Positions 2,242 through 61,332 of a DNA stretch of 64,000 nucleotides are shown here, in pieces. The translations under genes and the position numbers were made by a program. Below the pieces are notes generated by a model that was given only the letters and a program-made list of their open reading frames with translations, searched no databases and was not told where the DNA came from. This stretch comes from an uncultured Ruminococcus sp. (GTDB lineage: Bacteria; Bacillota; Clostridia; Oscillospirales; Ruminococcaceae), in assembly GCA_937926145.1 (NCBI GenBank), contig CALANW010000118.1, forward strand, positions 18,338-82,337. The letters are read 5' to 3'. Each line of letters opens with the position of its first letter. The stretch's first letter is position 1.

Positions 2242-2682
2242 TTACATCACCTCAGCCTTTCCGCCTGCCTTTTCAATTTTTTCTTTTGCTGAAGCGGAGA
2301 ATGCATCAGCCTTAACAGTTAAGTTCTTGGTGATCTCACCATTGCCGAGGATCTTAACGCCGTTGTCGATGTTCTTAACAAGACCTGAAGCGAGAAGAAG
2401 CTCTGCATCAACCTCTGTACCTTCCTTGAAGATTTCGAGTGAGGAAACATTAACAGCAGCCATCTTTGCTGCGAAGATGTTGTTGAAACCTCTCTTAGGG
2501 ATTCTTCTTGCGAGAGGCATCTGACCGCCTTCAAAGCCCGGTCTTACACCGCCGCCGGAACGAGCATTCTGTCCCTTGTGGCCCTTGCCGGAAGTTTTGC
2601 CCCAGCCTGAACCGTGACCTCTGCCGACTCTCTTAACGTCCTTCTTGGAACCTTCAGCAGGTGATAATTCGTGAATATACAT
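2242..2682 (-). CDS. rplO: 50S ribosomal protein L15 (uL15)
   Basis: 146 aa with a Gly/Arg/Lys-rich N-terminus ([19 protein letters not shown]). Operon position fits. Confidence 0.95.
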
Positions 2683-2702: not shown

Positions 2703-2879
2703 TTATGCTTCGGTAACTTCTACAAGGTGATTGATCTTAGCGATCTTTCCCTTTGTAGCATCATTATCGGGCTGAACCTTTTCAGCACCAACCTTATTGA
2801 GGCCGAGAGAATGTGCTACTGCGATCTGCGGCTTTGTGCAGCCGTTAAGGCTTTTAACAAGCTTTACTTTAAGTGCCAT
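2703..2879 (-). CDS. rpmD: 50S ribosomal protein L30 (uL30)
   Basis: Own translation, below the ORF-track cutoff: [58 protein letters not shown] (58 aa). Located between rpsE and rplO. Confidence 0.85.
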
Positions 2880-12096: not shown

Positions 12097-12279
12097 AACG
12101 TCAGCTTTTATACACACAAAACTTACCTATCGGCATAAAAATGCCAACGGTTTAAGCACACACAGTGTTGATATTACAGCCGCCCGGTTTAAAATCGGAC
12201 ATACTCCATGAAAATTCCCCGGCAAACCGCCGGCCACCTTTCACTTCAACGCATATCTTGTTGCAGTCACGCAAGTAGT

Positions 12280-19860: not shown

Positions 19861-21274
19861 AAGTATCTTGAACCTCAAAACGGCGATATGGATGTACTTG
19901 GTCATCTTTATAACGGGTATTTTTGTACTGCTGTGGTTCACGTTCGGCGTGTCGCTCGAAGCGAACTACAAGAGCAAAAAGACCAAGGACATCGTTTCTA
20001 TCGCTTCGTATATTCTCAAGGGCTGGAACGAGGACGGACTGACTACCGAAAATCTCGACAATACGGCATACAATAATAATATGTGCATCCTTATTCAGGA
20101 CGCCGACGGCTACACGGTATATTCCTACGATATGATGGCGAACAACTGCCTTATCCACGGCGTTTACAGCCTGAACCTTTTCAAATACCGAAATCAGGCT
20201 CTTGCGAGCAGCAACGGCTATTATTACGCCGAGGTCAACAACCCGCGCTTCAACACGAACACACTGCTTTTCGTTATGGTCATAGGCTCGGTCGATGACC
20301 CCGAGGGCTATATTTACCTCAACACCTCTCTCGCACCGCTCAAATCGACCGCTGATATTATCAAGCGGCAGATATATTGGATAGGTATTATCCTGCTTCT
20401 GCTCGGACTTATCATTGCGTATTTCCTCGCGTCCGTTATCGAAGCGCCTATCGTCCGCATTACAAAAACCGCGAAGAAAATGGGCGAGGGAAACTACAAC
20501 GTTGTCTTTGACGGACACGGATATGAGGAAACGGAAATTCTCGCCGATACTCTGAACAGTGCGGAGGAAGAAATCTCAAAGGTCGATACTCTCCGCCGTG
20601 ACCTTATCGCGAACGTTTCGCACGATCTGAGAACGCCGCTCACAATGGTCAAAGCCTACGCCGAGATGATACGCGATATTTCGGGCGATAATCCGCAGAA
20701 GCGCGCTGAACATCTGAACGTTATCATCGAAGAGAGTGACCGACTTGCAAAGCTCGTCAATGATATCCTTGACCTTTCCAAACTTGAAAGCGGCAACTTT
20801 GAGATAACCGAAACGGAATTCTGCATCACCGACACGATACGAAGCATAATGGAGCGCTATACCCTGCTTTCCGAGCAGAAAGGCTACACCTTTATCGTTT
20901 CTGCCGAGCAGAATTTCATCGTCAAAGCCGATGCTGTTAAAATTCAGCAGGTAATTTACAACCTTATCAACAACGCCGTCAACTACACGGGCGAGGACAA
21001 GACCGTTTATATCACGCAGATAGTCAAGAAGAAAAAACTCGTCCGAATCGAGATAACCGACACGGGCGCAGGCATCGACCCCGAGCTGATACCGCTCATC
21101 TTCGACCGCTACTACCGCACGGAAAAGAGCAAGCGTGAGGTCATCGGCACGGGACTTGGACTTTCCATAGTAAAGCAGATACTCCAGCGCCACAACTATG
21201 AATTCGGCGTTCGTTCCGAAAAAGGTGTCGGAAGCACATTCTGGTTCGAGATGCCGGGACATCTTGAAGAATAA
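19847..21274 (+). CDS. sensor histidine kinase (HAMP-HisKA-HATPase)
   Basis: 475 aa with H-box SHDLRTPL, N-box NLINNAVNYT and G-boxes DTGAGI and GTGLGLSIV. The TTG start overlaps the regulator stop, so the start is uncertain. Confidence 0.9.
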   Translation: MKQHKSILNLKTAIWMYLVIFITGIFVLLWFTFGVSLEANYKSKKTKDIVSIASYILKGWNEDGLTTENLDNTAYNNNMCILIQDADGYTVYSYDMMANNCLIHGVYSLNLFKYRNQALASSNGYYYAEVNNPRFNTNTLLFVMVIGSVDDPEGYIYLNTSLAPLKSTADIIKRQIYWIGIILLLLGLIIAYFLASVIEAPIVRITKTAKKMGEGNYNVVFDGHGYEETEILADTLNSAEEEISKVDTLRRDLIANVSHDLRTPLTMVKAYAEMIRDISGDNPQKRAEHLNVIIEESDRLAKLVNDILDLSKLESGNFEITETEFCITDTIRSIMERYTLLSEQKGYTFIVSAEQNFIVKADAVKIQQVIYNLINNAVNYTGEDKTVYITQIVKKKKLVRIEITDTGAGIDPELIPLIFDRYYRTEKSKREVIGTGLGLSIVKQILQRHNYEFGVRSEKGVGSTFWFEMPGHLEE

Positions 21275-21384
21275 TGCGTAATTCGTAATGCTTAATGCGT
21301 AATTATTTTGTTCCGCAGGTTTACGGTGAGAACCCTATCTTCATAGGGACGGGTTTATATTCGACTGTTTTCCAACAAAAACTC

Positions 21385-21413
21385 TTGACATATCAGTTTA
21401 AAAGTCTTATAAT
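21385..21413 (+). promoter_or_regulatory. consensus promoter of candidate antitoxin sRNA, copy 1
   Basis: TTGACA (21385-21390), 17-nt spacer, TATAAT (21408-21413). Confidence 0.7.
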
Positions 21414-21419
21414 ATAAAT

Positions 21420-21512
21420 ACAAAGAGGGCACACCGATAGACGGTCACTCCCAATATTTAGGTTAAGAAATAACCGTCCAAGTTTGGTCGCTCTGGGCGG
21501 TTATTTCTTTTT
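21420..21512 (+). ncRNA. candidate antisense (antitoxin) sRNA, copy 1 (ends approximate)
   Basis: No ORF. It ends in the hairpin GAAAUAACCGUCC...GGGCGGUUAUUUC (21467-21507) plus U5. The 3' end overlaps the last four codons and the 3' UTR of the convergent peptide gene. Confidence 0.55.
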
Positions 21513-21590
21513 ATTGTTGCAGCAATTCAACACTATCTGTATGATATTGCATATAAGTATTCCTAAAGATACAACTTCTGTGATACTCAT
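21501..21590 (-). CDS. 29-aa hydrophobic peptide, candidate type I toxin, copy 1
   Basis: Own translation: MSITEVVSLGILICNIIQIVLNCCNNKKK. The GGGGG SD lies 9 nt upstream. The peptide has one TM-like segment and a Lys tail. Confidence 0.6.
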   Translation of the reverse strand: MSITEVVSLGILICNIIQIVLNCCNNKKK

Positions 21591-21657
21591 ATCGCAACGC
21601 CCCCTTTCAGGGAGCAAAGATTGACCGCCTACCGTTTCTGGTATGCCCATAGATTCT

Positions 21658-21686
21658 ATTTTATCTTTTATGTTGAAATTTGTCAA
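21658..21686 (-). promoter_or_regulatory. promoter of peptide gene, copy 1
   Basis: Minus strand reads TTGACA (21686-21681), 17-nt spacer, TAAAAT (21663-21658). Confidence 0.6.
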
Positions 21687-21775
21687 TTATTTGAAATAAA
21701 TACACTTTTTTGTTGTTTTAAGCATCGACAGTTTACAATTGATAATTTTGTCGGAAACAAAATCAAAAACAGCTC

Positions 21776-21804
21776 TTGACATATCATTTTAAAAGCATTA
21801 TAAT
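21776..21804 (+). promoter_or_regulatory. consensus promoter of candidate antitoxin sRNA, copy 2
   Basis: TTGACA (21776-21781), 17-nt spacer, TATAAT (21799-21804). Confidence 0.7.
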
Positions 21805-21810
21805 ATAAAT

Positions 21811-21902
21811 ACAAAGAGGGCATACTGATAGACGGTCGCTCCCAAAATTAGCGAAAAAAAGTAATCGCTCCGGTTTGGTCGCTCGGGCGGTTACTTCTTT
21901 TT
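21811..21902 (+). ncRNA. candidate antisense (antitoxin) sRNA, copy 2 (ends approximate)
   Basis: Same architecture as copy 1, with a terminator hairpin at 21858-21897 plus U5. Confidence 0.55.
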
Positions 21903-21980
21903 ATTGTTGCAGCAATTCAATACTATCTGTATGATATTGCATATAAGTATTCCTAAAGATACAACTTCTGTGATACTCAT
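21891..21980 (-). CDS. 29-aa hydrophobic peptide, candidate type I toxin, copy 2
   Basis: Own translation gives a peptide identical to copy 1. Only 2 of 90 nt differ and both changes are synonymous. Not in the ORF track because it is under 60 aa. Confidence 0.6.
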   Translation of the reverse strand: MSITEVVSLGILICNIIQIVLNCCNNKKK

Positions 21981-22046
21981 ATCGCAACGCCCCCTTTCAG
22001 GGAGCAAAGATTGACCGCCTACCGTTCAGGTATGCCCATAAACCTT

Positions 22047-22075
22047 ATTTTATCATTTAAATAGTATTTTGTCAA
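22047..22075 (-). promoter_or_regulatory. promoter of peptide gene, copy 2
   Basis: Minus strand reads TTGACA (22075-22070), 17-nt spacer, TAAAAT (22052-22047). Confidence 0.6.
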
Positions 22076-22139
22076 TTATTTGAAATAAATACACTTTCTT
22101 GTTGTTCTTATAGTAAAAATAAAATCTGCACATTAAATC

Positions 22140-22183
22140 AACAGACCTGTTTTCGAGGATTTTTCCTTGAAAACAGGTCTGTT
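22140..22183. terminator. long perfect hairpin (15-bp stem), member of a repeated terminator family
   Basis: AACAGACCTGTTTTC-loop-GAAAACAGGTCTGTT. Near-identical stems occur at 42234-42277 and 48030-48072. Confidence 0.65.
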
Positions 22184-22379
22184 CGTTTATTTCATAACAC
22201 ATTGCGGCGCAGGATGGGCAACCGTCCATTGTAGTTTCGTGGGTCGCTAACGGGCGGATATGGAATCCGCCCCTACGGAATTCAGCCTTTCGTAAAATAT
22301 GCGGAGCAAGAATAATTGCGCATTACGAATTACGCATTGAATTAATTCCGCATTCCGAATTCCGAATTTAAACCAAGTA

Positions 22380-25491: not shown

Positions 25492-25974
25492 TTATGGCGC
25501 AAGCGGGTGACATCCGAGGGGAACAGAGCCGTTCGTGAAGCGCGCATTTACATCATTATATGAATACATTCCCGTGAAGTCAGATGCAGAAAGCGGCTGA
25601 TCGCTCCATAATGCGTATGAAGCGCCCGTTCCTGCTGTATCTGTCACGAACCCAAAATAGCCTCTGAAATTTTCACCTACATAATCTGTGATATCGCAGA
25701 CATCGCCGCTTGTCTGTCCCACACATTCAGCGTCCCCGTCGGCAGAATTAAGAAAAAGCTCACCTGCATTGAAAAACTGCCCTGCATTATAGTTATCCGT
25801 GATAGCAAGCTGTGCTCCTGAAAAGACAGTCTTGGCATTTGCATTGAATTGTGATATTCTCGATTTTTTCACATATCCAAGCATTGATGGCACGAGTATT
25901 GCTGCCAGTATACCAATTATCGCAATTACTACGATCAGTTCAATCAATGTAAAACCCTTTGTTTTTCCCCTCAT
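25492..25974 (-). CDS. type IV pilin (paralogue 2), prepilin-type N-terminal methylation domain
   Basis: Start at MRGKTKG/FTLIELIVVIAIIGILAAILVPSMLGYV, with a class III signal (G|FTLIE). Confidence 0.85.
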   Translation of the reverse strand: MRGKTKGFTLIELIVVIAIIGILAAILVPSMLGYVKKSRISQFNANAKTVFSGAQLAITDNYNAGQFFNAGELFLNSADGDAECVGQTSGDVCDITDYVGENFRGYFGFVTDTAGTGASYALWSDQPLSASDFTGMYSYNDVNARFTNGSVPLGCHPLAP

Positions 25975-26036
25975 AGCATTGTCCCCTTCCAAATGTAAAA
26001 TAATCATATATATTTAACTGAAATTATTATACTTTC

Positions 26037-26065
26037 ATAATATAACAATTTCTATATTTTGTCAA
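26037..26065 (-). promoter_or_regulatory. promoter of pilin paralogue 2
   Basis: Minus strand reads TTGACA (26065-26060), 17-nt spacer, TATTAT (26042-26037). Confidence 0.55.
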
Positions 26066-26098
26066 CAGCAAAGCAAATTTGTAATCAAATTGTAATAT

Positions 26099-26911
26099 TC
26101 ATTCTTTCCAAATCTCCCAATATCTCAGAATTTCGGGAGAAAACTCATCAAATGCCCACGTTCTTGCACTTTTTTCGGGATTTGCAGGGTCATTGATGAT
26201 GAATCCTGTTTTATCATAGCCGCGGATTACAAATGCGTGGCTTCCGAACGTATCACCTTTCACGTTCACAATAAGCGGTCTGCCTTTATCAAGAATATCT
26301 TTCATTTGCTTTTCATCGGGTTTGCCGTTTCCGCCCTCATCGGGGTCAAAGTTGTAGCTGTTGTATTTCAGACCGACAGCCTCGCAAATGTTTCCAATCT
26401 CGCTGTTCCTTACACCGCCCATAAAACCGCTCGCGCCTAAGTCTTCCGCTACCCTCGAAACCCTCACGGGATCATAATAGCCGTCACCTGTCAAACCGAC
26501 ATCTACCATTGAAATGCTTACAACTGCGCAGCCGCCCGAAAAGATATATCTACCTCCGATCGTTTCATACGCCCAACGGTAATCATCCATATAAAAATTC
26601 GGAATAGTTCCGCTATCGAGCTCTTCCTCGGTGAACGACATCGTTTTATAATCGTCCTTATGCTCAACATAATTATAAACCATATCAATAAATTCATCGT
26701 TCATATAGTAATAGTCGAGCAATGCCCTGGGGTATTCGTCAACGTGTTCAAGAATATATGCCGATCGTTCGTCCGTTTCGGCATTTTCCGCAAGCTTTCC
26801 ATACTGTTCGTGCAGCTTTTGTTTTTTTTCAACCGGTATGAGCAGGAGCAGCACTGCGACAACTGCAAGAATTACCACTATTATTATCATAACCTTCGTT
26901 TTTGTTTTCAT
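26099..26911 (-). CDS. membrane-anchored papain-fold (C39-like) cysteine peptidase
   Basis: 270 aa with an N-terminal TM anchor. Candidate catalytic residues are Cys in SGGCAVVSISM and His/Asp in GSHAFVIRGYD...IINDP. Confidence 0.5.
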   Translation of the reverse strand: MKTKTKVMIIIVVILAVVAVLLLLIPVEKKQKLHEQYGKLAENAETDERSAYILEHVDEYPRALLDYYYMNDEFIDMVYNYVEHKDDYKTMSFTEEELDSGTIPNFYMDDYRWAYETIGGRYIFSGGCAVVSISMVDVGLTGDGYYDPVRVSRVAEDLGASGFMGGVRNSEIGNICEAVGLKYNSYNFDPDEGGNGKPDEKQMKDILDKGRPLIVNVKGDTFGSHAFVIRGYDKTGFIINDPANPEKSARTWAFDEFSPEILRYWEIWKE

Positions 26912-26933
26912 ATTGTCCTCACAAATGACTTTA

Positions 26934-26966
26934 TAAAAAAACAGCAGCAGAAAGGTCTGCTGCTGT
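26934..26966 (-). terminator. strong rho-independent terminator after the major pilin gene
   Basis: Minus strand reads ACAGCAGCAGACCUUUCUGCUGCUGU followed by U7. Confidence 0.85.
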
Positions 26967-26993
26967 CATTTTCAATTAGTCGCTCAAAGTCGA

Positions 26994-27569
26994 TTACGGA
27001 TTAGAGCTAGAAGTGCCAAGGGAAGGAGCAGGGTATACACCGTAAATGTTACCAGCCTTAGCGTCAGACTTCTGATCGCCCTCTGTGATAGCCTTAACAT
27101 CATCGGAAGATGTCTTAGTGCTGATTACGTTCCAACCCTGTGCTGTTGTTGCATATACAGCAACGGAAACAGAGTATGTACCAGGATTGAAGAATGCTCT
27201 GCCGTAGCCTGTGAATTCTTCGCCAAGGTAAGCAGCAAGGTCAACGTCAGCATCCTGAGGTGTGTTATTAACGTTATTCCAAGACACAGGAATAACACCG
27301 TTGCTAATTGGGTTATCAGTTGTATTTACTGTGAGGTAACCTTCTGTTTGTGTAGTGCCAGACCAAGACCAGTTAGCGATACCGAGCTGTGTAAGAGCGG
27401 AAGCACATGCTGTGTGAACCTGCTTAGCACCGGAGTTAGCGGAAGAAATTCTTGCGTTTCTAACGTAACCGAGCATAGAAGGTACGAGGATAGCAGCAAG
27501 AATACCGATAATCGCAATAACTACGATAAGTTCGATAAGGGTGAAGCCCTTAGTTTTTGAATTTCTCAT
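26994..27569 (-). CDS. pilA: major type IV pilin
   Basis: Start at MRNSKTKG/FTLIELIVVIAIIGILAAILVPSMLGYV after AAGGAGG. It has its own strong terminator, and by eye its codon usage looks biased compared with paralogue 2. Confidence 0.85.
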   Translation of the reverse strand: MRNSKTKGFTLIELIVVIAIIGILAAILVPSMLGYVRNARISSANSGAKQVHTACASALTQLGIANWSWSGTTQTEGYLTVNTTDNPISNGVIPVSWNNVNNTPQDADVDLAAYLGEEFTGYGRAFFNPGTYSVSVAVYATTAQGWNVISTKTSSDDVKAITEGDQKSDAKAGNIYGVYPAPSLGTSSSNP

Positions 27570-27640
27570 GTGGAAATTCCTCCTTTTCAATATTTAAAAT
27601 GTTTTTTTATTAAAACCGAACCATGCGGTTTTATACGTTA

Positions 27641-28438
27641 TTAAGTGTAGGAAACAGTTGTGGAATTCTCAATATCCGCATACAACGGATAATATCCAAC
27701 TGCTGTTCCTGCGGCTTTTCCGAGGAACGTGCCGTCATCAAGAGTTTTTCCGGAATATATTCTCTTCTGTGAATAAATGTCCTCGCAGAAAGGAATCCTT
27801 CCGTTTGAAGCAGTCATAATGTTTGTGCTGCCTGAACTTTTTGTCTTGAACATTGGAACAAAATCAGCAATACCGTTTGCTGAATTCTCGACTCTTTCAT
27901 AGTCTTCGGCGAAGACCACACTGTCAACTATCCAATCTTCCATATCGATAGCTGCATAAACATAACCTGTAAAGTCCATTGCGAGGTTATCGGTCAGATA
28001 CTTCGCAAGCTTACGGAATTTCTTCTCCGTATTGGTCGTTGCCGATGCTGCATCCGGATAATTGTATGAAAGAGTTGCTGTTGTTGTTCCATCATTAATA
28101 ACAAGACTATGCGAACTTGTCATTATTCCGTTATCCATTACAAAACTCAAGGTAACATATTTGGAAAATGTTCCGCCTGCACCGTATGTAGTCGGGTCAA
28201 GCAAATCGCTTTCCTGCTTTATCTCTATCTGTATGAGTGCATTCTGAACGCTTGTATAAACGGTCTGTGCTTTATCTCTTGCTGTTTCAAGCCTTGAATC
28301 ACGCACAAGTCCCGTTGTAAGTATTGAGATCATTCCTGCAAGTATTGCAAGTATCGCAATAACGATCAGAAGCTCGATGAGGGTAAAGCCCTTTAAGCTT
28401 TTTGCGGAGGACTTACCGCAGTTTTTATTACTGTCCAT
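27641..28438 (-). CDS. pilin-like protein with prepilin-type N-terminus (265 aa)
   Basis: The N-terminus reads ...SLKG/FTLIELLIVIAILAILAGMI. First gene after a consensus promoter. Confidence 0.75.
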   Translation of the reverse strand: MDSNKNCGKSSAKSLKGFTLIELLIVIAILAILAGMISILTTGLVRDSRLETARDKAQTVYTSVQNALIQIEIKQESDLLDPTTYGAGGTFSKYVTLSFVMDNGIMTSSHSLVINDGTTTATLSYNYPDAASATTNTEKKFRKLAKYLTDNLAMDFTGYVYAAIDMEDWIVDSVVFAEDYERVENSANGIADFVPMFKTKSSGSTNIMTASNGRIPFCEDIYSQKRIYSGKTLDDGTFLGKAAGTAVGYYPLYADIENSTTVSYT

Positions 28439-28495
28439 TGGGATCTCCTCCTAATAAGTTTCACACATTTTATGTAGTGTTCTCTTACTGTTATT

Positions 28496-28524
28496 ATTAT
28501 ATAGCGCGAGTATCTTTTTGTCAA
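28496..28524 (-). promoter_or_regulatory. perfect consensus promoter of the pilin sub-operon
   Basis: Minus strand reads TTGACA (28524-28519), 17-nt spacer, TATAAT (28501-28496). Confidence 0.7.
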
Positions 28525-28749
28525 TAGATTTTGTAATATTTCTGCACTAAAAAAGTGAATTTGTGTATAATTTCTTTTTATCACTAAAATTGTGATTATT
28601 TTTTGCCATTTTGACTAAATTATTAATAAACACAAACGTTTTCTTATACTCTCGGTAAAATGCATATAAGTTCTGCCAAAGTATGCACTTTTTTGTTGAA
28701 AACGTTTATGTAAAATCACACTTTTTTCTTCGGCATAACTTTTTTATTA

Positions 28750-29886
28750 TCAGAAGCGGTTCATACCGGGAGCGCCGCCTGCACCCTTGAGGTAACGCTC
28801 ATATTCAGCGATATCAAGGCTCTTTTCACGGGCATTTGCGTCTGTGATAACGCCGTCCTTAACAAGTCGTGCAAGCTCCTGATCGAGGCAGACCATTCCT
28901 TCTTTTTTACCTGTCTGGATAGCTGTCTGGATAAGATGTACCTTGTTGTCACGAACCATTGCCTTAACGGCATCGGTAGCGTTAAGAATTTCGAGAGCCG
29001 CAACACGTCCCGTACCGTCAGCCTTAGGGATAAGGGTCTGGGCGATGATACCTACGAGAACTGTTGCGAGCTGTGAACGGATCTGGTTCTGCTGATGTGC
29101 AGGGAAAACGTCGATGATACGGTTGATAGTATCGGCTGCACACGTTGTATGAAGTGTGGACATTACAAGGTGTCCCGTTTCAGCGGCGGTAACAGCGGCG
29201 TTAATGGTTTCAAAGTCTCTCATTTCTCCGACGAGGATAACGTCAGGGTCTTCACGGAGTGCGGCACGGAGGGACATTGCAAACGATTCAACGTCGTCGC
29301 CGATCTCTCTCTGGTTTACCATACAGCGCTTATGCTCGTGAACGTACTCGATAGGGTCTTCAACGGTGATGATATGCGCCGAACGGTTGATATTTACATA
29401 GTCGATCATAGCTGCGAGGGTCGTAGATTTACCTGAACCTGTAGGACCTGTTACAAGGATAAGTCCACGGGGACGCATTGCAAATTCGCCGAGGATAGGA
29501 GGAAGATCGAGGTCAGCAAGGGACGGAATATCGTTTCTGAGAAGACGGATAGAGATAGCCGTGTTGCCCTTCTGGTGGTAAACATTGACTCTGTGACGGT
29601 AGCCTCTCTTTGTAACGTACGAGAAGTCGGTATCGACCTTGTTCTTGATATTTTCAAGCTGTCTGCCGTTTGTCATCTGTTCAACGATCTTCATGATAGC
29701 GGCTTCGGTCATCTCGGGGTAAGATGCAAGTCTGCGGAGCGAGCCGTGAAGACGAACTACAGGCGCGATCTTCGTTGTGAAATGCACGTCGGAGCAGCCG
29801 AGAACTCGAGCTTCGTCAAGAATTTTGTTGATGTTGATGACTACTTTTTCGGGAGCTTTGGTTTCCATTTCTGCCATTTGATTCAA
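28750..29886 (-). CDS. pilT: type IV pilus retraction ATPase PilT
   Basis: 378 aa with Walker A GPTGSGKST and the PilT-type motif AHQQNQIRSQLA. The exact start is uncertain. Confidence 0.88.
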   Translation of the reverse strand: MNQMAEMETKAPEKVVININKILDEARVLGCSDVHFTTKIAPVVRLHGSLRRLASYPEMTEAAIMKIVEQMTNGRQLENIKNKVDTDFSYVTKRGYRHRVNVYHQKGNTAISIRLLRNDIPSLADLDLPPILGEFAMRPRGLILVTGPTGSGKSTTLAAMIDYVNINRSAHIITVEDPIEYVHEHKRCMVNQREIGDDVESFAMSLRAALREDPDVILVGEMRDFETINAAVTAAETGHLVMSTLHTTCAADTINRIIDVFPAHQQNQIRSQLATVLVGIIAQTLIPKADGTGRVAALEILNATDAVKAMVRDNKVHLIQTAIQTGKKEGMVCLDQELARLVKDGVITDANAREKSLDIAEYERYLKGAGGAPGMNRF

Positions 29887-29930
29887 TTCCTTTCAAGATT
29901 ATATGTTTGAAAAATATATAATAGTATATT

Positions 29931-31619
29931 TTATACTGCGTATGTAACTCTGACGAGTTCGTCCATTGTGGTCTTGCCCTGCTGAACGAGTTCCGAAACG
30001 TTGTCACGGAGGAGCTTTGTACCCTGCTTAGCTGCGAGTGCTGCGATAGCGTCGGTCTTGCCGCCGTTCGCGATAAGGCTGCTCATTTCCGTTGTGCAGG
30101 TGAGAACTTCATGGATAGCGGTACGTCCCGTGTAACCCGTGTTATTGCACTTCGGGCAGCCGCAGGCATCATAAATAGTGATAGGTGCGCTGATTCCCAT
30201 AAGTTCGTCCTCTTCGGGGGTAGACATACGCGGCGTACGGCAGTCTTCGCATATCTTTTTAACAAGTCGCTGTGCAACGATACCGATAAGCGAAGTAGCG
30301 ACCATGTACGGTGCAACGCCCATATCCACAAGACGGGTAACGGTCGATGCGGAGTCGTTTGTATGGAGTGTCGAGAGAACCATATGACCGGTGATAGCAG
30401 CTCTGATAGCGATCTCGGCTGTTTCCTGGTCACGCATTTCACCGATCATTACGATATCAGGGTCCTGACGGAGGATAGAACGGAGGGCAGCGGAGAATGT
30501 CATACCTGCCTTAGCGTTTACCTGACACTGATTGATGCCTTCGATATCTTTTTCGACAGGGTCTTCGACCGTAACTACGTTTACGTTAGGCTTTGCAAGC
30601 TCACCGAGAGCGGCATAAAGGGTGGTTGTTTTACCTGAACCTGTAGGTCCTGTTACGAGCATAACGCCCTGCGGAACTTTGATAAGTTTTGAGAATCTCT
30701 GATAGTTATAATCGGTCATACCGAGGTCTGTGATCTTACGGAGGGCAACGTTACCCGTTGAAAGGATACGGATAACGACCTTTTCGCCGTTTACCATCGG
30801 GAGGTTAGATACACGGACGTCGAGCGTTGTTCCGTCAACGACCTGCGAGAAACGTCCGTCCTGCGGCACACGCTTTTCCGCGATGTTCATACCGCTTATG
30901 ATCTTAAGTCTTGTAACGAGTGCATTATGTACAACGTTTGAAACGTTCATAAGCTCGATAAGGTCGCCGTTAACTCTGATACGGATACGGGTAAAGGTCT
31001 TGAACGGCTCGATATGAATATCCGTTGCGCCTGCACGGAACGAGTTTTCAACGATAGTCGTTGCGAGTTTAACGATAGGAGCGTTGTCGATTCTGTCTGC
31101 GGATTCGTCATCGACGCCGTTGAGGTCATCATCGGCGAACTGGCTCGTAACGCTGTCGAGGATAGCGCCCGTGTTCTGCATCGAATAGCATTTGCCGATA
31201 GCCTTTGTGATAGCTTCCTTTGTTGCGAGGACAGGAACAACGTCCATTCCCGTTGAAACCTTGATATCTTCAAAAATATAGAAGTTTACAGGGTCGTGCG
31301 AAGCAACGGTAAGTCTTTTGCCTGTTACCTTTATAGCAATAATAGTATGCTTCTTTGCGAGCGCTTCCGGTATCTTCTTAACGGCTTCGATGTCGATGTT
31401 GACTTCGGGGTCGTTAAGGTCAACGAACGGAACGTTGAGCTTCTTTGCGAGGATCTGTGCGAACTGAACGTCGGTAACGTATCCAAGCTGGATAACATAA
31501 TCGCCGAAGAATTTACCGGGGACATTTTCCTCTTTCTTAACGTCAAGAACGTGCTGGAGCTGTTCTTCGGTAATTACGCCCTCATTGACCATATATTGTC
31601 CTATTGGGATATTCTTCAT
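29931..31619 (-). CDS. pilB: type IV pilus assembly ATPase PilB (GspE family)
   Basis: 562 aa with an N-terminal GSPII_E_N-like domain, Walker A GPTGSGKTT and a tetracysteine motif (CEDC...CPKC). Confidence 0.92.
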   Translation of the reverse strand: MKNIPIGQYMVNEGVITEEQLQHVLDVKKEENVPGKFFGDYVIQLGYVTDVQFAQILAKKLNVPFVDLNDPEVNIDIEAVKKIPEALAKKHTIIAIKVTGKRLTVASHDPVNFYIFEDIKVSTGMDVVPVLATKEAITKAIGKCYSMQNTGAILDSVTSQFADDDLNGVDDESADRIDNAPIVKLATTIVENSFRAGATDIHIEPFKTFTRIRIRVNGDLIELMNVSNVVHNALVTRLKIISGMNIAEKRVPQDGRFSQVVDGTTLDVRVSNLPMVNGEKVVIRILSTGNVALRKITDLGMTDYNYQRFSKLIKVPQGVMLVTGPTGSGKTTTLYAALGELAKPNVNVVTVEDPVEKDIEGINQCQVNAKAGMTFSAALRSILRQDPDIVMIGEMRDQETAEIAIRAAITGHMVLSTLHTNDSASTVTRLVDMGVAPYMVATSLIGIVAQRLVKKICEDCRTPRMSTPEEDELMGISAPITIYDACGCPKCNNTGYTGRTAIHEVLTCTTEMSSLIANGGKTDAIAALAAKQGTKLLRDNVSELVQQGKTTMDELVRVTYAV

Positions 31620-31759
31620 ATATATTCTCCGTTTCTCCGTGACTAATTTTTGTGCCGCTCACGGTGCGGATTTTAAAATTGCTATTGAAAAATTTAAAAT
31701 TATATGTTAAGATATTGTTTAAGCAAATATCAAATTTTCACTGTAAAGGAGTTTTGCAA

Positions 31760-32767
31760 ATGAACATTGCCTTTGCCGCATCAGAAATGATCGGCTTGCA
31801 GATCGGTATCTATGTAATGGTGTTCCTTTTCGGGATCACGATCGGAAGCTTCCTGAACGTCTGCATATTCAGGCTTCCTGAGGGCGAATCGCTCATCAAA
31901 CGGAATTCGCACTGTATGACCTGCGGCGCGGAGATAAAGCGATATGATCTTATCCCGCTTTTCAGCTGGCTCATACTCGGGGGAAAATGCCGTTCCTGCG
32001 GAGCGAAGATATCGGGAAGATATCCGCTTGTCGAAGGATTGACGGGTGTGCTTTTCGTACTGGTCTACACACAGTATGATCTTATCACCGACGGACTTAT
32101 TTATCCTGCTGTTGTGTGTCTTTTCATTGCAGGCATCATCGTTATCGGATTTGAGGATTTTGATACGCAGGAAATGTCGGTATGTGTGCTTGTTTATCTC
32201 GGCATTGAAGCTTTTCTGACGAGAGTTCTTTCGGTGCTTCTTCCGACTGCATTCAGAGGAAACGATGTTCCGCTCGTTGACGGTATCATCGGACTTTTTG
32301 CAGTAAGCGTTCCGCTTCTTCTCATCGGTTTCGTGTTCACGCCGCTTATTTACATATTATTTATAAGTGAAGATCACAAAACTGTAAGAAAGCTGAAAAA
32401 ACGTCTTGCAAAAGAGAAGCTGAGCGAAAAGGAAGCCGAAAAACTGACCAAGCTTCTTAATGAAACTCTTGAAAAGATCAAGGAAAAAGGCCCTGTTTAC
32501 GGATTTGGAATGGGCGATATACTGTTTATGGCTGCAGGCGGCTTGATGTTCGGCTGGAAAGCAGCTGTTGTAGCGCTTTTCATCGCAATAATCATCGGAG
32601 CGGTCGCTGCCGTTGTTATCAAGATCAAAAACAAGGACAAAGAGGACGCTGACAACGCATTCGCGTTCGGTCCGTGCCTTGCAGTGGGACTTGTCTGTGC
32701 ATCATTCTTCGGAACGAAGCTTTTCGATATGTACTGGACTGCTATGACTGTTCCGCACGTTATGTGA
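31760..32767 (+). CDS. pilD: prepilin peptidase (A24 family) with N-terminal Cys-rich methyltransferase-type region
   Basis: Start at MNIAFAAS after AAAGGAG. Motifs: CxxC...CxxC (HCMTCG, CRSCG) and catalytic-type GFGMGD. An extra charged insert of about 60 aa precedes GFGMGD. Confidence 0.88.
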
Positions 32768-32782
32768 TTTGACCGATCATAT

Positions 32783-32816
32783 CGGGGGTGTGCTTATGCG
32801 CACCCCCGAATTTTTT
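32783..32816. terminator. bidirectional terminator between pilD and the convergent minor pilin gene
   Basis: CGGGGGTGTGC-TTAT-GCGCACCCCCG followed by AATTTTTT. Confidence 0.75.
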
Positions 32817-33588
32817 AATCTTTCGGAAGAGTAAAAATGATATAGGTATTTGCGTTATTTGCTGTTGTGCTTGCTCCTGCGTAAAGAGCATCAGTTGCTC
32901 CATTTATGGGAGAACTCAGATTCAAGCAATTTACCTCACCATCCGTCGAAACAAATTTATAACCTGAAACATCATTTGTACCAACGGTTGTTCCTGCACG
33001 ATTCACTTGGTCAAGTGAAGATGGTAGAAGACTCGAAACAGTAATCTTCAATCCGTCGAAGGTTTTTCCTGTCACCTTCGACGGATCAGATGGGTCATCA
33101 TGCTTTGGAACAATATTAACCGGTACAACATTAATGGAGTAAGTATATTTTCCGTAGTAAGCCTCACCAAGAGCAAGACGTGATGTCGTTCCGGTGGCGG
33201 TCTTGCTTCGGAGGATACGTCCGTATGAATCTGCGTCGTTGTACTTATACTGCGTCTTGTTGTCAATCGTGATAACATTAAGATCGCCATCTGTTGCAGA
33301 ATTGTAACCGGTTGCATTTGTAAACGCTGTAATAGCGTCTGAAAGATTGTTGATCGCCGTTGTCTGCTCGTTGTATATTCCCATTTTGGTAGCATAGCGT
33401 GTACTTTCCGTAATGTATGTCACAATGCCGCTTTGGGTATTGCGCTGAGCTTCATAATATGTCGCATCAACGTACGTGTTTCTTATCGGCTTCATCATCT
33501 GCATTATACCGACCATAAGAATTGACATAACTGCCATTACAACAATCAACTCAATAAGGGTAAAGCCTTTTATCAATTTATTTTTCAT
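32815..33588 (-). CDS. minor pilin / pseudopilin (257 aa)
   Basis: N-terminus reads MKNKLIKG/FTLIELIVVMAVMSIL. Confidence 0.75.
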   Translation of the reverse strand: MKNKLIKGFTLIELIVVMAVMSILMVGIMQMMKPIRNTYVDATYYEAQRNTQSGIVTYITESTRYATKMGIYNEQTTAINNLSDAITAFTNATGYNSATDGDLNVITIDNKTQYKYNDADSYGRILRSKTATGTTSRLALGEAYYGKYTYSINVVPVNIVPKHDDPSDPSKVTGKTFDGLKITVSSLLPSSLDQVNRAGTTVGTNDVSGYKFVSTDGEVNCLNLSSPINGATDALYAGASTTANNANTYIIFTLPKD

Positions 33589-33600
33589 AAGAGCCCCCTA

Positions 33601-34140
33601 TCAATTGCTGTGACCCACTATGTATTTATAGCGGAGCGAGATATCCTTTTCAGCCAAGCCGGTATATGCGGGATTATCCACCCAAGTACCCGACACAAGT
33701 GTTTTAGATGGTACATCGTTATTAGGATTGTTTTTGTCGTGACTGCGGCTGAGAAGAACATAGATATCAACAGGGTAGCTGTACATTTCACCTGTAAGGT
33801 TTCCTGCACTGTCGTATTTTTTGATCTCAATATAATTTTTCTGTACGGAAACGTCCGTAACCTTGCTTGGAGGGGTGCAGTCACCGCTTTTGCTTGCACT
33901 GTGGTTATCCGCAACCGATGTAGCAGATGTGCTGCCATAATAGATTGGTATAGAATCCGTTCCTGTAGCATCTTCAACAATTTTCATCTGGTATGACAAA
34001 CTTGCGTTAACGTTATGGTTGTTCAAATTTGTACGGCTTACATCTGCATAGATCTGAGCCATTACCAGTGAAGCAATGCCAAGTATCGCAAGAGCAATAA
34101 GACATTCAATAAGGGTAAAACCTCTGAAACTTTTTTTCAT
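33601..34140 (-). CDS. minor pilin / pseudopilin (179 aa)
   Basis: Start at MKKSFRG/FTLIECLIALAILGIASL after AGGAGG. The longer track ORF overlaps the upstream gene. Confidence 0.75.
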   Translation of the reverse strand: MKKSFRGFTLIECLIALAILGIASLVMAQIYADVSRTNLNNHNVNASLSYQMKIVEDATGTDSIPIYYGSTSATSVADNHSASKSGDCTPPSKVTDVSVQKNYIEIKKYDSAGNLTGEMYSYPVDIYVLLSRSHDKNNPNNDVPSKTLVSGTWVDNPAYTGLAEKDISLRYKYIVGHSN

Positions 34141-42099: not shown

Positions 42100-42102
<3 letters not shown>

Positions 42103-42585
42103 TTCGGAATTAGGAATTCGGAATGCGGAATTAGTTTGCTTCGCAAATAATTTTAAATCGTTGGGGCGGATTCTATATCCGCCCTTTTCGTGTTTAATTG
42201 CTAATTGGATTTTCGATATGCGAATAAACAAAGACAGACCTGTTTTCAAAGAATTATCCCTTTGAAAACAGGTCTGTTCGTTTATTTTATACTAAACACC
42301 AATTAAAAACTATACAAAAAATCAAGCAAAAGCTCGTAGCTGTTATAACAGCTTGATGTTGAAAACAGGTTTATATGGCTTTTGCGCCGATTTTTTGTCT
42401 ACACTTTGATTAAAAATTAGTATTATAACGCCTTGCGGCGCGGGACGGGAAACCCGTCCCCTACAGTAGTTCCGCTGTAATTCGTAGATTGCATCGGGCG
42501 GATATGGAATCCGCCCCTACGAAAATCCGTTTTTTCGCCGTAAATTTTCGGAGCAAAATAATTCCGAATTCCGCATTCCGAATTA
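42100..42585. repeat. mosaic intergenic repeat locus B (type example)
   Basis: Left array T(AATKMGG)x4AATTAG at 42100-42134. Right array (ATTCCGM)x3 at 42558-42585. Palindromes at 42163-42184 (+), 42442-42464 (-) and 42496-42520 (-). Central terminator hairpin at 42234-42277. Confidence 0.85.
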
Positions 42586-45476: not shown

Positions 45477-45820
45477 TAATGCGGAATTAGGAATTCGGAA
45501 TTATTAGCATAGCTAACATTTGCCTGGTATTGCGAAGCCAAGCGAAACTTTATAAACCAACAATCAAATAGCGTGATATTTAGCAGATCAAAAGCGCAGT
45601 TCACACGATAACGGAAAACGAAATTCGTGATCTTTAATGTGAATTGCGCTGTTCTGTTTTTCCGAAACAAGCAAACAGCTTATACATAATGTTAGAATAT
45701 AACAACGCGTCAAAGCAATATGCCGCAGGGCTATTTACTTTTATATTTTTTACGGTATAATTAAAAATCAGAGCATGGACCCACGGCAATTCCGAATTCC
45801 GCATTCCGAATTCCGAATTT
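45477..45820. repeat. mosaic intergenic repeat locus C
   Basis: Left array at 45477-45503 (TAATGCGGAATTAGGAATTCGGAATTA). Right array (ATTCCGM)x4 at 45788-45820, directly upstream of the traX RBS. Confidence 0.8.
45593..45661 (+). terminator. long-loop hairpin plus U-rich tail inside locus C
   Basis: AGCGCAGTTCACA...TGTGAATTGCGCT followed by GTTCTGTTTTT. Plausible GH9 terminator. Confidence 0.45.
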
Positions 45821-47908: not shown

Positions 47909-47943
47909 AGTTAAATAAAATTTAGCAGAGTGTACGAATTTCG

Positions 47944-48181
47944 GCAGGGACGAATTCCATATCCTCCGGATAAACGCACGATTTTGCTCCGCAAAACAAA
48001 TATTGCAGGACATTGTAATATAAACGAACAAGACCTGTTTTCATTGGAATTTTCCTTTGAAAACAGGTCTGTTTTTATAATTATTTCCGACACTTCGTGC
48101 GCCGAAAAATCACTTCGCGATTTGGGACAGGTGCCCCGCCCCTACGGAGTTTATGACAAATATACGCAATACAAATAATTA
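47944..48181. repeat. degenerate mosaic repeat locus D
   Basis: Degenerate palindromes at 47947-47970 and 48124-48145. The GATAAACGCACGATTTTGCTCCGCAAAAC module is present. Terminator hairpin at 48030-48072 plus T5. An ATTACGC heptamer remnant contains the galK stop. Confidence 0.65.
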
Positions 48182-50816: not shown

Positions 50817-50919
50817 TAATGCTTAATGCGTAATTCGTAATGCGTAATTATTTTATTTCGGGAAATTGTTGTTTCGCCGTAAATTTGCGGAGCAAAATAA
50901 TTACGCATTGCGAATTGCA
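50817..50919. repeat. minimal mosaic repeat element (locus E, 103 bp)
   Basis: The (AATKCKT)x4 array at 50817-50850 and the inverted ATTRCGM array at 50899-50919 are separated only by the ATTTCGGG...CGCCGTAAATTTGCGGAGCAAAAT core. Confidence 0.8.
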
Positions 50920-50981
50920 AATGTTATACCCTCTATAACTAATTTAAATATCGCAATATTTATAAATTAATAAAAAATCGG

Positions 50982-54319: not shown

Positions 54320-54322
<3 letters not shown>

Positions 54323-54590
54323 TTCGGAATTAGGAATTCGGAATGCGGAATTATTGGTGATTTGTACATTTGTCACGAAACGCCAAAATTTCGTACCATA
54401 AGGCATTAATATAATAACAAACAACCCTGTTTTCAATGGTTTTATCCAAAGAAAATAGGGTTGTTTTTGTTATTATTCAAGATATTGGGTACACATAAAA
54501 TTGCTGACGCAATTCGGGACGGAAATCGGTTCTCGCCATAAATTTGCGGAGCAAAGTAATTCCGAATTCCGCATTCCGAATTCCGAATTA
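54320..54590. repeat. mosaic intergenic repeat locus F
   Basis: Left array at 54320-54353 starts with the ilvC stop TAA. Right array (ATTCCGM)x4 at 54558-54590 ends with the sod stop. Terminator hairpin at 54421-54464. Degenerate palindrome at 54516-54535. Confidence 0.85.
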
Positions 54591-59663: not shown

Positions 59664-59673
59664 TACGCATTGT

Positions 59674-60096
59674 TAAATTCGGAATTCGGAATGCGGAATT
59701 CGAAATTATTTTGCTCCGTAAATTTATGGCGAGAACCGATTTTCCGTAGGGGCGGATTCTATATCCGCCCGATAAACGCACGATTTTGTTCCGCAAAACG
59801 GAATGTAAAGGACGTTTTTCCAGTTCCGCGCCGCAAGGCGTTTATACAATAAAAACAACCCTGTTTCAATGGCTTTTAACCGATGAAACAGAGTTGTTTT
59901 GTTATGCGGTAAACCATACCGAAATATATGCACCGAAAAATCGCTGGCGCGATTCGGGACGGGCAACCCGTCCCCTACAGAAAATGCGCCCAAATATAGA
60001 TTTTGCATCGGTCGGATATGGAATCCGACCCTACGATTTACGGCAATTTGCGGAGCAAAAATAATTCCGAATTCCGAATTCATAATTCCGAATTTA
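59674..60096. repeat. mosaic intergenic repeat locus G
   Basis: Left array at 59674-59708 and right array at 60059-60096. GTAG-headed palindromes at 59746-59770 (+), 59956-59978 (-) and 60010-60034 (-). Terminator hairpin at 59852-59900. Confidence 0.85.
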
Positions 60097-60099
60097 ATA

Positions 60100-61332
60100 T
60101 CAGTAGTCTATTATAAACACAAGAATCCTATACTGCGAATAATAGTCTGTCCAGCTGACATTGAGTTTGACGTTCATCTCGGAACTTATGTCGGCTATCC
60201 TGCCTTTGAGGTAATCTCCCCCGCTGCTTGCGCTGTCCATCATCTGCCGAACGGTCGAAAGCATCATATTGTTCGTGCTGAACTTTACCGAAGCGGTGTG
60301 TTTGCCCTCGGATATTGCTTTTCGCAGGGCGTTTTCTATCGTCTGCTCGGTCGCTTCCTCGCTTTCGACATACAGTCCCTCTTTGATGAAGTAGTTCTCC
60401 GTTGTACCGTATGCTTTCGGCGGAGGCGAGATTATCGTCCATATCGTGTGGTTGTTCTCTATGACCGAATCGGTGACGAGAAAATACTGATACATCACCA
60501 TATCGGGATACATTTCGGCGATCATTCCGTCGGGTTTATCCCATGTCACATCGACGTGATACCAGTTTCCGTCGATCTTGACCATATTCCACATATGGGC
60601 GGTATCCGTTTCGCCAGTGACGATGATATTCTCTATCCCAGCTTTATTGCAGAGGTAGGAAAAGCTCTTCGCATAGCCTTCGCAGAGCGCCTTTCCCCTT
60701 ACGAGCGCACCATAGATAGTGTTCGCATAGACATCTTCTGAGTCGCTATCGCAATGGGTGATAAGGTAATCGTGGAAATATTTCAGCTTATCATAGGTCG
60801 TCATTTCGTCGGTGACACCGCTCATTATCTCATTTGCGGCTGCTTCCGCGGCTCGGTTCATATTGCTCATTTCCTCGCAGGAAAAGCGATAGGTGAACTC
60901 AACGGGAAAGTGCTGGGTTTCGGTATCGAAATTGCCGACCTTTCTGTCTGAAACATTGCCGAAGCCCATTTGCTCAACTCCGATAAGATTCAGGATCTTT
61001 GTATAGGTCACGCCGTCCGATTCCATAGGCACGGACGGTTCTTCGTTGCCAATAGCTTCAACGAGCGAATTATATATTTTCTTTTCATCGGAGGAAAGGA
61101 AATTCTGTCCGTACACCGTTTCCATATCCTCGGGAAAATAGATAAGGCTGTTGCGGACAACTGACGATGAATCTTCGATAAGTATCGAAGTTCCGCCCTC
61201 TATCATGTGATAGCTGCCGTTATAGGTCATATCCTCTGTCGGGTCTTTTTCCGAACCGCACGAGGAAAAAGCCATAGTTACCGTTATTGCCGCTGCGGCA
61301 GCTGCGCAGCGCTTCGGTATAAGTTTACGCAA
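60100..61332 (-). CDS. transglutaminase-like (papain-fold) lipoprotein, paralogue 1
   Basis: Lipobox MAFSSCG. Cys-His-Asp core: KALCEGYAKSFSYLC, HMWNMVKIDGNWYHVDVTWD. Confidence 0.8.
   Translation of the reverse strand: MRKLIPKRCAAAAAAITVTMAFSSCGSEKDPTEDMTYNGSYHMIEGGTSILIEDSSSVVRNSLIYFPEDMETVYGQNFLSSDEKKIYNSLVEAIGNEEPSVPMESDGVTYTKILNLIGVEQMGFGNVSDRKVGNFDTETQHFPVEFTYRFSCEEMSNMNRAAEAAANEIMSGVTDEMTTYDKLKYFHDYLITHCDSDSEDVYANTIYGALVRGKALCEGYAKSFSYLCNKAGIENIIVTGETDTAHMWNMVKIDGNWYHVDVTWDKPDGMIAEMYPDMVMYQYFLVTDSVIENNHTIWTIISPPPKAYGTTENYFIKEGLYVESEEATEQTIENALRKAISEGKHTASVKFSTNNMMLSTVRQMMDSASSGGDYLKGRIADISSEMNVKLNVSWTDYYSQYRILVFIIDY

Follow-up and report, generated by a model that had tools for sequence, protein, structure and literature searches.

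GTAG-tagged palindromes in the intergenic mosaics of a Ruminococcus genome fragment: probable REPs of a family tied to RAYT genes in other genomes

A 64,000-nucleotide stretch of an uncultured Ruminococcus sp. genome (contig CALANW010000118.1, positions 18,338 to 82,337; hereafter the window) carries, at 59674-60096, short palindromes headed by the tetranucleotide GTAG that recur in other intergenic regions of the same DNA. The locus raises the question of what these palindromes are and whether they answer to a transposase. An earlier note, made from the letters of the window, had taken them for repetitive extragenic palindromes (REPs) or REP doublets forming hairpins (REPINs) and had predicted a REP-associated tyrosine transposase (RAYT, or TnpAREP) elsewhere. 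REPs are small DNA repeats that a domesticated RAYT, as a rule, disperses. The analysis presented here supports, with a probability of roughly 0.8, the reading that the window palindromes are GTAG-tagged REPs whose family is tied to RAYT/TnpAREP genes in other genomes. They display the features expected of such elements, being short, GC-rich and extragenic, with GTAG at the 5' foot, unrelated flanks and an arrangement in inverted doublets.

Two related palindromes make up the set. Type 1 (25 nt) reads GTAG-GGGCGGAT-TCYAT-ATCCGCCC, its headless 21-mer being GGGCGGATTCYATATCCGCCC, and type 2 (23 nt) reads GTAG-GGGACGGG-TTK-CCCGTCCC, with the headless form GGGACGGGTTKCCCGTCCC. In both types the stem is perfect, spans 8 bp, starts with GGG, ends with CCC and encloses a loop of 5 nt (TCYAT) or 3 nt (TTK). 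In each REP unit, then, GTAG serves as a guide of 4 nt and sits where a perfect 8-bp stem has its foot; the stem opens with three G-C pairs and a loop of 3-5 nt closes it. Seven intact or near-intact copies (five of type 1 and two of type 2) and several decayed ones are present in the 64 kb, all of them intergenic. When the patterns were scored with up to 3 mismatches against 100 dinucleotide-preserving shuffles of the window, neither found a match, i.e. none is expected by chance. At the 59674-60096 locus an exact type-1 copy at 59746-59770 (+), with loop TCTAT and stem GGGCGGAT/ATCCGCCC, faces its inverted partner at 60010-60034 (-), a type-1 variant (GTAG-GGTCGGAT-TCCAT-ATCCGACC) whose stem stays paired through two compensatory substitutions. 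The same locus holds an exact type-2 copy with loop TTG at 59956-59978 (-), mirrored at 59805-59827 (+) by a decayed type 2, GTAAAGGACGTTTTTCCAGTTCC, which has 6 mismatches and falls in inverted repeat I14 (partner 42427-42465). Similarly, the locus at 42100-42584, between gdh and a CE2 esterase gene, pairs a type-1 copy with the degenerate head GTTG and 1 mismatch (42160-42184, +) with a type-1 copy with loop TCCAT (42496-42520, -), and holds a type-2 copy with loop TTT at 42442-42464 (-). Another type-1 copy, 22252-22276 (-), lies in the right arm of the large locus 21272-22368. The copies at 59746, 59956, 60010, 42496, 42442 and 22252 were recovered by pattern matching and by hairpin scans alike. 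Decay is more advanced at 47944-47968 (+), GCAG-GGACGAAT-TCCAT-ATCCTCCG, with 5 mismatches and within the 80-nt repeat family D13 that it has in common with 59737-59816, and at 48124-48145 (-), GTAG-GGGCGGGG-CAC-CTGTCCC, where the head is retained and the remainder has 7 mismatches to type 2. The positions given by the earlier note for the exact and near-exact palindromes are borne out by the pattern matches, absent from the shuffles, and the inverted pairing that it described is real for 59746(+)/60010(-) and 42160(+)/42496(-). Its degenerate copies fared unevenly: those at 42160, 47944 and 48124 stand, but those at 54516 and 21346 are half-stems that by themselves lie at chance level and are recognisable only from context, being placed as expected within their loci.

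The headless type-1 21-mer was searched in 185,579 species genomes, the head being left out so that its conservation could be judged without bias. Family-wide copy counts refer to at least 116 foreign stretches listed, with the window added where stated, 0.88 Mb in all. The head GTAG is present in 130 of 146 type-1 copies (from the window and at least 116 foreign loci) and most exceptions are one base off, so that its conservation across aligned copies, which had been set as a test of the REP proposal, held. The base directly after the stem is usually G, and outside the unit the sequences of the copies are unrelated to one another. Among perfect hairpins of the form GGG-N5-loop(3-5)-N5'-CCC in the 0.88 Mb, 253 of 283 have GTAG on exactly one side and a single one has it on both. 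The stems CGGAT, ACGGG, AGCAT, CGCAT, CGAAC, CAGAA and others occur under the same grammar, and the window REPs belong to this large superfamily, GTAG-GGG-N5-loop-N5'-CCC. Long open reading frames (ORFs) hold 20 of the 146 type-1 copies (14%) against an ORF coverage of 83% (p = 3e-74). Adjacent hairpins are mostly arranged with heads outward (79 in +- order versus 23 in -+), at a commonest spacing of ~25-31 nt. The hosts among the matches listed include many metagenome-assembled genomes (MAGs) of Oscillospiraceae and other Clostridia and, among isolates, Gemmiger formicilis, Fumia xinanensis and Oscillospiraceae bacterium WX1, together with Christensenellaceae, Bulleidia (Erysipelotrichaceae), Coriobacteriaceae/Raoultibacter (Actinomycetota), Bacteroidota and Desulfobacteraceae (Desulfobacterota). 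The exact 21-nt core, nearly always GTAG-headed, is found in at least four phyla (for example at loci L002, L009, L015, L044, L047, L071, L100, L103 and L107). This identity across phyla suggests that a REP/RAYT pair may have spread horizontally, mis-binning of contigs in MAGs being another possible source of it. A full-text search for the exact 25-mer in a limited collection of papers gave no match.

The link to a transposase comes from the foreign loci. Intact HUH/Y1 ORFs are present at L050 (Fumia xinanensis), L100 and L115; at L033, L104 and L085 there are remnants in truncated form. Each of them contains a hairpin or lies within a few hundred bases of one. The first probe, an E. coli RayT sequence, was used in a local phmmer search only and is not counted as evidence, its hits being re-verified by Pfam, NCBIfam and PDB. 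All three intact ORFs match Pfam Y1_Tnp (PF01797) and, far more strongly, the NCBIfam model NF047646 'REP-associated tyrosine transposase' (E = 2e-15 to 1e-20). In the profile of the aligned family members the HUH and Y-x-x-NP motifs align with those of E. coli TnpAREP (4ER8); H84, H86, Y146 and N150 do not vary among them, and P151 hardly does. Relatives of the L115 type number more than 1200, many of them labelled 'REP element-mobilizing transposase RayT' by the Joint Genome Institute (JGI), and the Fumia-type RAYT (~161 aa) has at least 8000, with Fumia, Oscillospiraceae, Ruminococcaceae, Porcipelethomonas and Clostridia among the named sources. In 77 of 80 metagenomic RAYT loci a GTAG hairpin lies in the gene or within 300 bp of it, and hairpin density in these 80 loci falls from 3.0/kb in the gene and 1.4-1.6/kb within 300 bp to 0.16/kb farther away, a 10-20-fold enrichment. 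The HUH/Y1 gene that had been predicted to accompany these palindromes thus exists beside or around them, with Fumia xinanensis, MAGs of Oscillospiraceae/Ruminococcaceae and the 77 metagenomic loci as the cases.

The genes themselves also carry the repeat. Most Fumia-type genes hold an inverted pair of GTAG hairpins, one near nt +120 (+) and one near nt +295 (-), on either side of the region of the HuH motif; in L050 the pair occupies 2565-2587 (+) and 2736-2758 (-), and it is placed likewise in L123, L124, L127 and L130-L209. The in-gene hairpins encode VGARIARP and GRAMRAPT or co-varying peptides such as ASIARP/GRAMLAPT, ATIGRP/GRPMVAPT and ADIIRP/GRIISAPT, among others. Within a gene the two stems are usually equal, between genes they differ, and they are discordant in 20 of 166 genes, a pattern that indicates concerted evolution of the stem pair. 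In several loci (L148, L157, L163 and L184) copies at a distance have the same stem as the one in the gene. The window type-1 REP itself, translated in frame, yields the peptides VGADSISA and RADMESAP, which are found in the RAYTs P0002, P0005, P0007, P0015 and L100; in L100 the hairpins are also present directly in the DNA. A chimeric query containing the type-2 REP peptides (VGDGFPVP/GTGNPSPT) returned no such protein among its top matches.

Since the associated proteins match Pfam PF01797, which is named 'Transposase IS200 like', the hairpins might instead be subterminal left-end and right-end structures, or solo remnants like palindrome-associated transposable elements, of true IS200/IS605 elements (TnpA with or without TnpB), which are common in Clostridia (PMC6006769). 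This explanation is very improbable. The proteins give E-values of 1e-15 to 1e-21 with REP_Tyr_transpos (NF047646), whereas their match to IS200 is weak or absent; among aligned family members, 25 of 25 match the former and 1 of 25 the latter. The best PDB match of the family profile is E. coli TnpAREP 4ER8 (3e-8), not IS608 TnpA or ISDra2 TnpA, the latter reaching 0.5. Most protein clusters of the family were seen on a single contig, no tnpB stands beside the RAYT genes, and the seven genes looked up have housekeeping neighbours (ruvA and ruvB to either side, ilvD ahead, or prfB alongside). GTAG directly at the foot of the stem is likewise REP-like. One of these contexts is of interest in its own right. 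At L210 5088-5585, and also in L211-L213 (recorded as Ruminococcaceae bacterium, JGI contigs), the gene order is ruvC-ruvA-RAYT-DUF6487-ruvB, the RAYT start overlapping the ruvA stop within the Holliday-junction operon. The placement suggests that this RAYT may have been domesticated into DNA repair or recombination. The clostridial RAYT genes look domesticated: most protein clusters were seen on one contig only, and one gene sits inside the ruvCAB operon.

Judged by these features, the family would match the published description of TnpAREP subclass 2.4 (Quentin et al. 2018, PMC6006769), which equals RAYT group 4 (Bertels et al. 2017, PMC5581495). Subclass 2.4 has three G-C pairs at the stem foot, is the only one with REPs in frame inside tnpAREP, lacks a C-terminal extension and is scattered over several phyla (PMC6006769). 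Here too a 5' GTAG stands at the foot of a hairpin with three G-C pairs at its base, REPs flank the RAYT gene and lie in frame around its HuH motif, the protein has ~160 aa without a C-terminal extension, and the distribution over several phyla is patchy. In contrast, the published group comes mainly from Cyanobacteria, Bacteroidetes, Chlorobia and Caldilineae and has 'long canonical' stems, whereas the hosts here are gut Oscillospiraceae/Ruminococcaceae and other Clostridia and the stems are short (8 bp) and perfect. Similarity to the REPs and bacterial interspersed mosaic elements (BIMEs) of E. coli, with their TnpAREP (RayT/YafM; 4ER8), extends to the GTAG-headed extragenic palindrome at gene 3' ends, the mosaic of REPs in alternating orientation with other short modules, and the HUH/Y1 enzyme as best structural relative. 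E. coli REPs, however, are longer and imperfect, with a bulge required by the enzyme, and BIMEs have no heptamer arrays at their ends; the perfect 8-bp stems found here agree with the second group of Corneloup et al. 2021 (PMC8266576), in which REPs that are perfect palindromes are served by RAYTs with a recognition group of their own. The heads-outward inverted doublets that can fold into one long hairpin, and the apparently single-copy RAYT, recall the REPINs of Pseudomonas fluorescens (Bertels and Rainey 2011), against which the family-wide doublet spacing of ~25-31 nt may be set. Unlike in those REPINs, the two members of a pair in the window are separated by 239-311 nt, with a terminator-like hairpin and further modules between them. 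The 24 GTAG REP families catalogued by Di Nocera et al. 2013 (PMC3733652) come from Proteobacteria, Cyanobacteria, Chloroflexi and the PVC (Planctomycetes-Verrucomicrobia-Chlamydiae) superphylum, with none from Firmicutes, and share with the present one the GTAG tag and stem-loop, sites between convergent or co-directional genes and occasional in-frame genic copies. The remark of the earlier note that this grammar is unusual in a clostridial genome is therefore true of the published REP catalogues but not of the data, in which the RAYT family counts at least 8000 members and the few that are organism-named come from Clostridia.

In the window the hairpins are confined to related mosaic loci, at 21272-22368, 42100-42584, 47935-48145, 54320-54589 and 59673-60097; loci of the same family at 45477-45819 and 50817-50923 are without a REP. 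Every window copy lies within such mosaic inverted-repeat loci, as the proposal of a larger composite element had anticipated. The mosaics, ~260-1100 bp long, mostly fill gaps between convergent housekeeping genes: dxs/transglutaminase-like, gdh/CE2 esterase, histidine kinase/peptidoglycan-binding protein, ilvC/sod and pnuC/galK (gene identities by Pfam). A full mosaic is a long imperfect palindrome, each arm comprising, from outside to inside, an (AATTCGG)n array, a ~35-nt module, a type-1 REP, a spacer, a type-2 REP (intact or decayed) and the mini-hairpin GCGCCGCAAGGCG, with an AT-rich hairpin at the centre between the two inverted arms. As single-stranded DNA, 59674-60096 folds into one long hairpin (-114 kcal/mol, z = -11.9) in which 59746-59770 pairs with 60010-60034. 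Its terminal inverted repeats (inverted repeat I9), 59673-59712 and 60058-60097, are 90% complementary; the left one carries its (AATTCGG)n array at 59676-59696 and begins 10 nt past the dxs stop, and the right one carries a (CCGAATT)n array and ends 2 nt short of the stop of the convergent transglutaminase-like gene (60100-61332, -). At the centre (59855-59898; repeat families D10/D8) lies an AT-rich hairpin, AACAACCCTGTTTCA...TGAAACAGAGTTGTT, with a T-run after it; it is the counterpart of a bidirectional terminator-like hairpin, that of the 42100-42584 mosaic at 42233-42278, which has a 19-20 bp stem and T-runs on both strands and was called terminator-like both ways; the terminator scan made no call at 59855-59898, its only both-strand call being that in the 42100 mosaic. 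Heptamer arrays bound every mosaic, (AATTCGG)n on the left (42101-42128, 45478-45498, 54321-54348 and 59676-59696) and (CCGAATT)n on the right (22348-22368, 42564-42584, 45792-45819, 54562-54589 and 60067-60080), as located by regular expression. Variant units are AATKCGT at 21273 and 50825 and AATGAGG in the Gemmiger MAG L034.

This architecture admits another explanation, that the whole mosaic is a non-autonomous element resembling a MITE (a miniature transposable element with inverted repeats), with the (AATTCGG)n arrays and the 35-nt module as its ends, the GTAG hairpins as passengers or later insertions, and a transposase unrelated to RAYT, possibly TA- or TAA-targeting, as its mover. We hold it to be possible, if doubtful. 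Homology between loci reaches well past the REPs to the end arrays (families D1-D4 and I1-I13), such arrays occur in several related MAGs, and the outermost TAA/TTA of the arrays is the stop codon at five gene ends, those of the histidine kinase, gdh, CE2, ilvC and sod (21272-21274, 42100-42102, 42583-42585, 54320-54322 and 54588-54590). A minimal 106-nt palindrome at 50817-50923, between divergent genes, consists of arrays and the 35-nt module only, with 13 nt between its arms and no REP, and may represent either the core of something MITE-like or what a deletion has left of a full mosaic. On the other hand, no candidate transposase was found and no target-site duplication can be defined at the mosaic ends, which read T(T)AAT...ATT(A)A and were ambiguous on inspection by eye. 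Conservation across genomes is limited to the 25-nt GTAG unit, whose flanks are unrelated, and the arrays vary between strains by slippage in the manner of a microsatellite, a one-unit difference separating L117 from L118 and L119. In addition, syntenic mosaics differ module by module and not by presence or absence of a block. A MITE origin of the mosaic would in any case be compatible with the REP identity of its hairpins, and both can be true.

The last point is seen against the MAG L029 ('uncultured Ruminococcus sp.'), which is 87-96% identical to the window over 41-48 kb. At the syntenic gdh/CE2 site, compared at an identity of roughly 93-96%, the place taken in the window by type 1 (42160-42184) is occupied in L029 by a type-2-like REP, and an indel of ~115 nt separates the two mosaic centres (window 42134-42440, L029 6481-6672). 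The intergenic region downstream of the GH9 gene is largely unalignable (window 45496-45818, L029 2513-2822). The intergenic mosaics turn over much faster than the flanking genes. The window GH9 protein is also encoded on metagenome contigs in ENA and Logan.

Several findings weigh against a RAYT-linked REP identity of the window palindromes. Profile searches of six-frame ORFs of at least 25 aa detected no RAYT gene or remnant in the 64-kb window, none scoring below E = 0.3. The 90-odd RAYT loci that were fetched, including 80 metagenomic ones and 7 contig look-ups, contained none from the window's lineage, and these same loci showed neither heptamer arrays nor exact type-1 or type-2 REPs nor similarity to the window. 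A cognate active RAYT in the genome of the window is therefore a prediction; REPs are known to outlast the loss of their RAYT. The RAYT scores of 57-74 bits lie under the NCBIfam equivalog cut-off of 80, and the type-1 loop has 5 nt as against 3 nt in the in-gene REPs of the Oscillospiraceae-type RAYT. The repeated unit inside the window is an arm of ~150 nt that includes non-REP modules (families D2, D4, D12 and D13), so that copies within the window may owe their spread to recombination or another kind of mobility and not have moved REP by REP. Finally, a RAYT model does not account for the heptamer arrays or for the way in which these coincide with stop codons.

If the REP reading is correct, the palindromes would be expected to behave as described for the TnpAREP of E. 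coli, Stenotrophomonas and Marinomonas. By this analogy the hairpin would extrude on single-stranded DNA such as the lagging-strand template, a RAYT would bind the stem-loop and read its GTAG, and cleavage and rejoining nearby would copy, swap or delete REPs or doublets. A bolder version, which we consider unlikely, holds that the mosaics are a distinct composite element of Ruminococcus and its relatives, a RAYT-driven 'intergenic cassette' system and not a simple scatter of REPs. REP doublets would here have grown into giant hairpins, with (AATTCGG)n arrays as ends that abut and often supply the convergent TAA stops, a terminator-like hairpin at the centre and at times cargo such as the toxin-antitoxin-like cassette at 21373-22106. 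They would have been built and reshuffled by a RAYT lineage whose own gene keeps an inverted pair of co-evolving REPs, and horizontal transfer would have brought the same 25-nt REP into at least four phyla. The putative cargo is a ~390-bp tandem duplication in the largest mosaic (units 21373-21717 and 21764-22106), each unit of which has a small hydrophobic minus-strand ORF with the core MSITEVVSLGILICNIIQIVLNCCNNKKK, ending at 21501 or 21891, and near-consensus promoters that, read by eye, apparently face each other; it has no Rfam match. In its sequence the duplication resembles a type I toxin-antitoxin cassette.

The palindromic layout of the mosaics bears on a further alternative. Each convergent gene's 3' end would be transcribed through sense-oriented GUAG hairpins before the central hairpin is reached, and because the layout places these hairpins in sense for each gene, a secondary role as 3'-end stabilisers or terminator helpers is probable. 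The hairpins could then be nothing else, that is, ordinary cis-acting signals (terminators, 3'-end stabilisers or protein-binding sites) that evolved in place and have no link to a transposase. Besides their location and orientation, this would fit the copy at 42163-42185, which has a T-run behind it and drew a terminator-like call; such secondary roles are, moreover, known for E. coli REPs (PMC6006769). Nevertheless, evolution in place would not be expected to produce an identical 21-nt core with a GTAG head and unrelated flanks in at least four phyla, and copies that lie in frame inside RAYT genes and are enriched around them point to the transposase. The T-run is absent at most copies, and an Rfam search of the whole window at gathering thresholds matched nothing at the hairpins. 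We regard purely cis-acting signals as improbable. Among other repeat classes judged from the sequences alone, CRISPR arrays were rejected for want of regular spacers, and integron attC sites because the R''/L'' grammar is absent.

To our knowledge, nearly all work on REP/RAYT systems has dealt with Proteobacteria. The GTAG REP superfamily and its large RAYT family (at least 8000 proteins) are common in Clostridia, most organism-named members belonging to Oscillospiraceae/Ruminococcaceae, and are a new, large, gut-clostridial member of the already known REP/RAYT systems. What is noteworthy is the size of the clostridial RAYT family, the co-varying pair of REPs inside its genes, the identity of REPs across phyla and the array-bounded mosaics, which together provide a tractable non-proteobacterial model for the co-evolution and spread of RAYTs and REPs. 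For annotators, intergenic regions of this kind can be assigned to a known class rather than left unexplained. The repeats probably break metagenome assemblies, because many RAYT contigs are only ~1 kb long.

Two further features of the window lie apart from the mosaics. The only Rfam match obtained in the search described above is an S10-Clostridia ribosomal protein leader (RF03136, 38.5 bits) at 12177-12257 (-), upstream of a ribosomal protein operon, which agrees with the window being clostridial DNA. At 25914-34135, repeat family D5 comprises five copies of a 56-nt repeat, in which a prepilin-type N-terminus (KGFTLIELIVVIAI...) can be read by eye on the minus strand; this suggests a putative cluster of pilin or pseudopilin genes.

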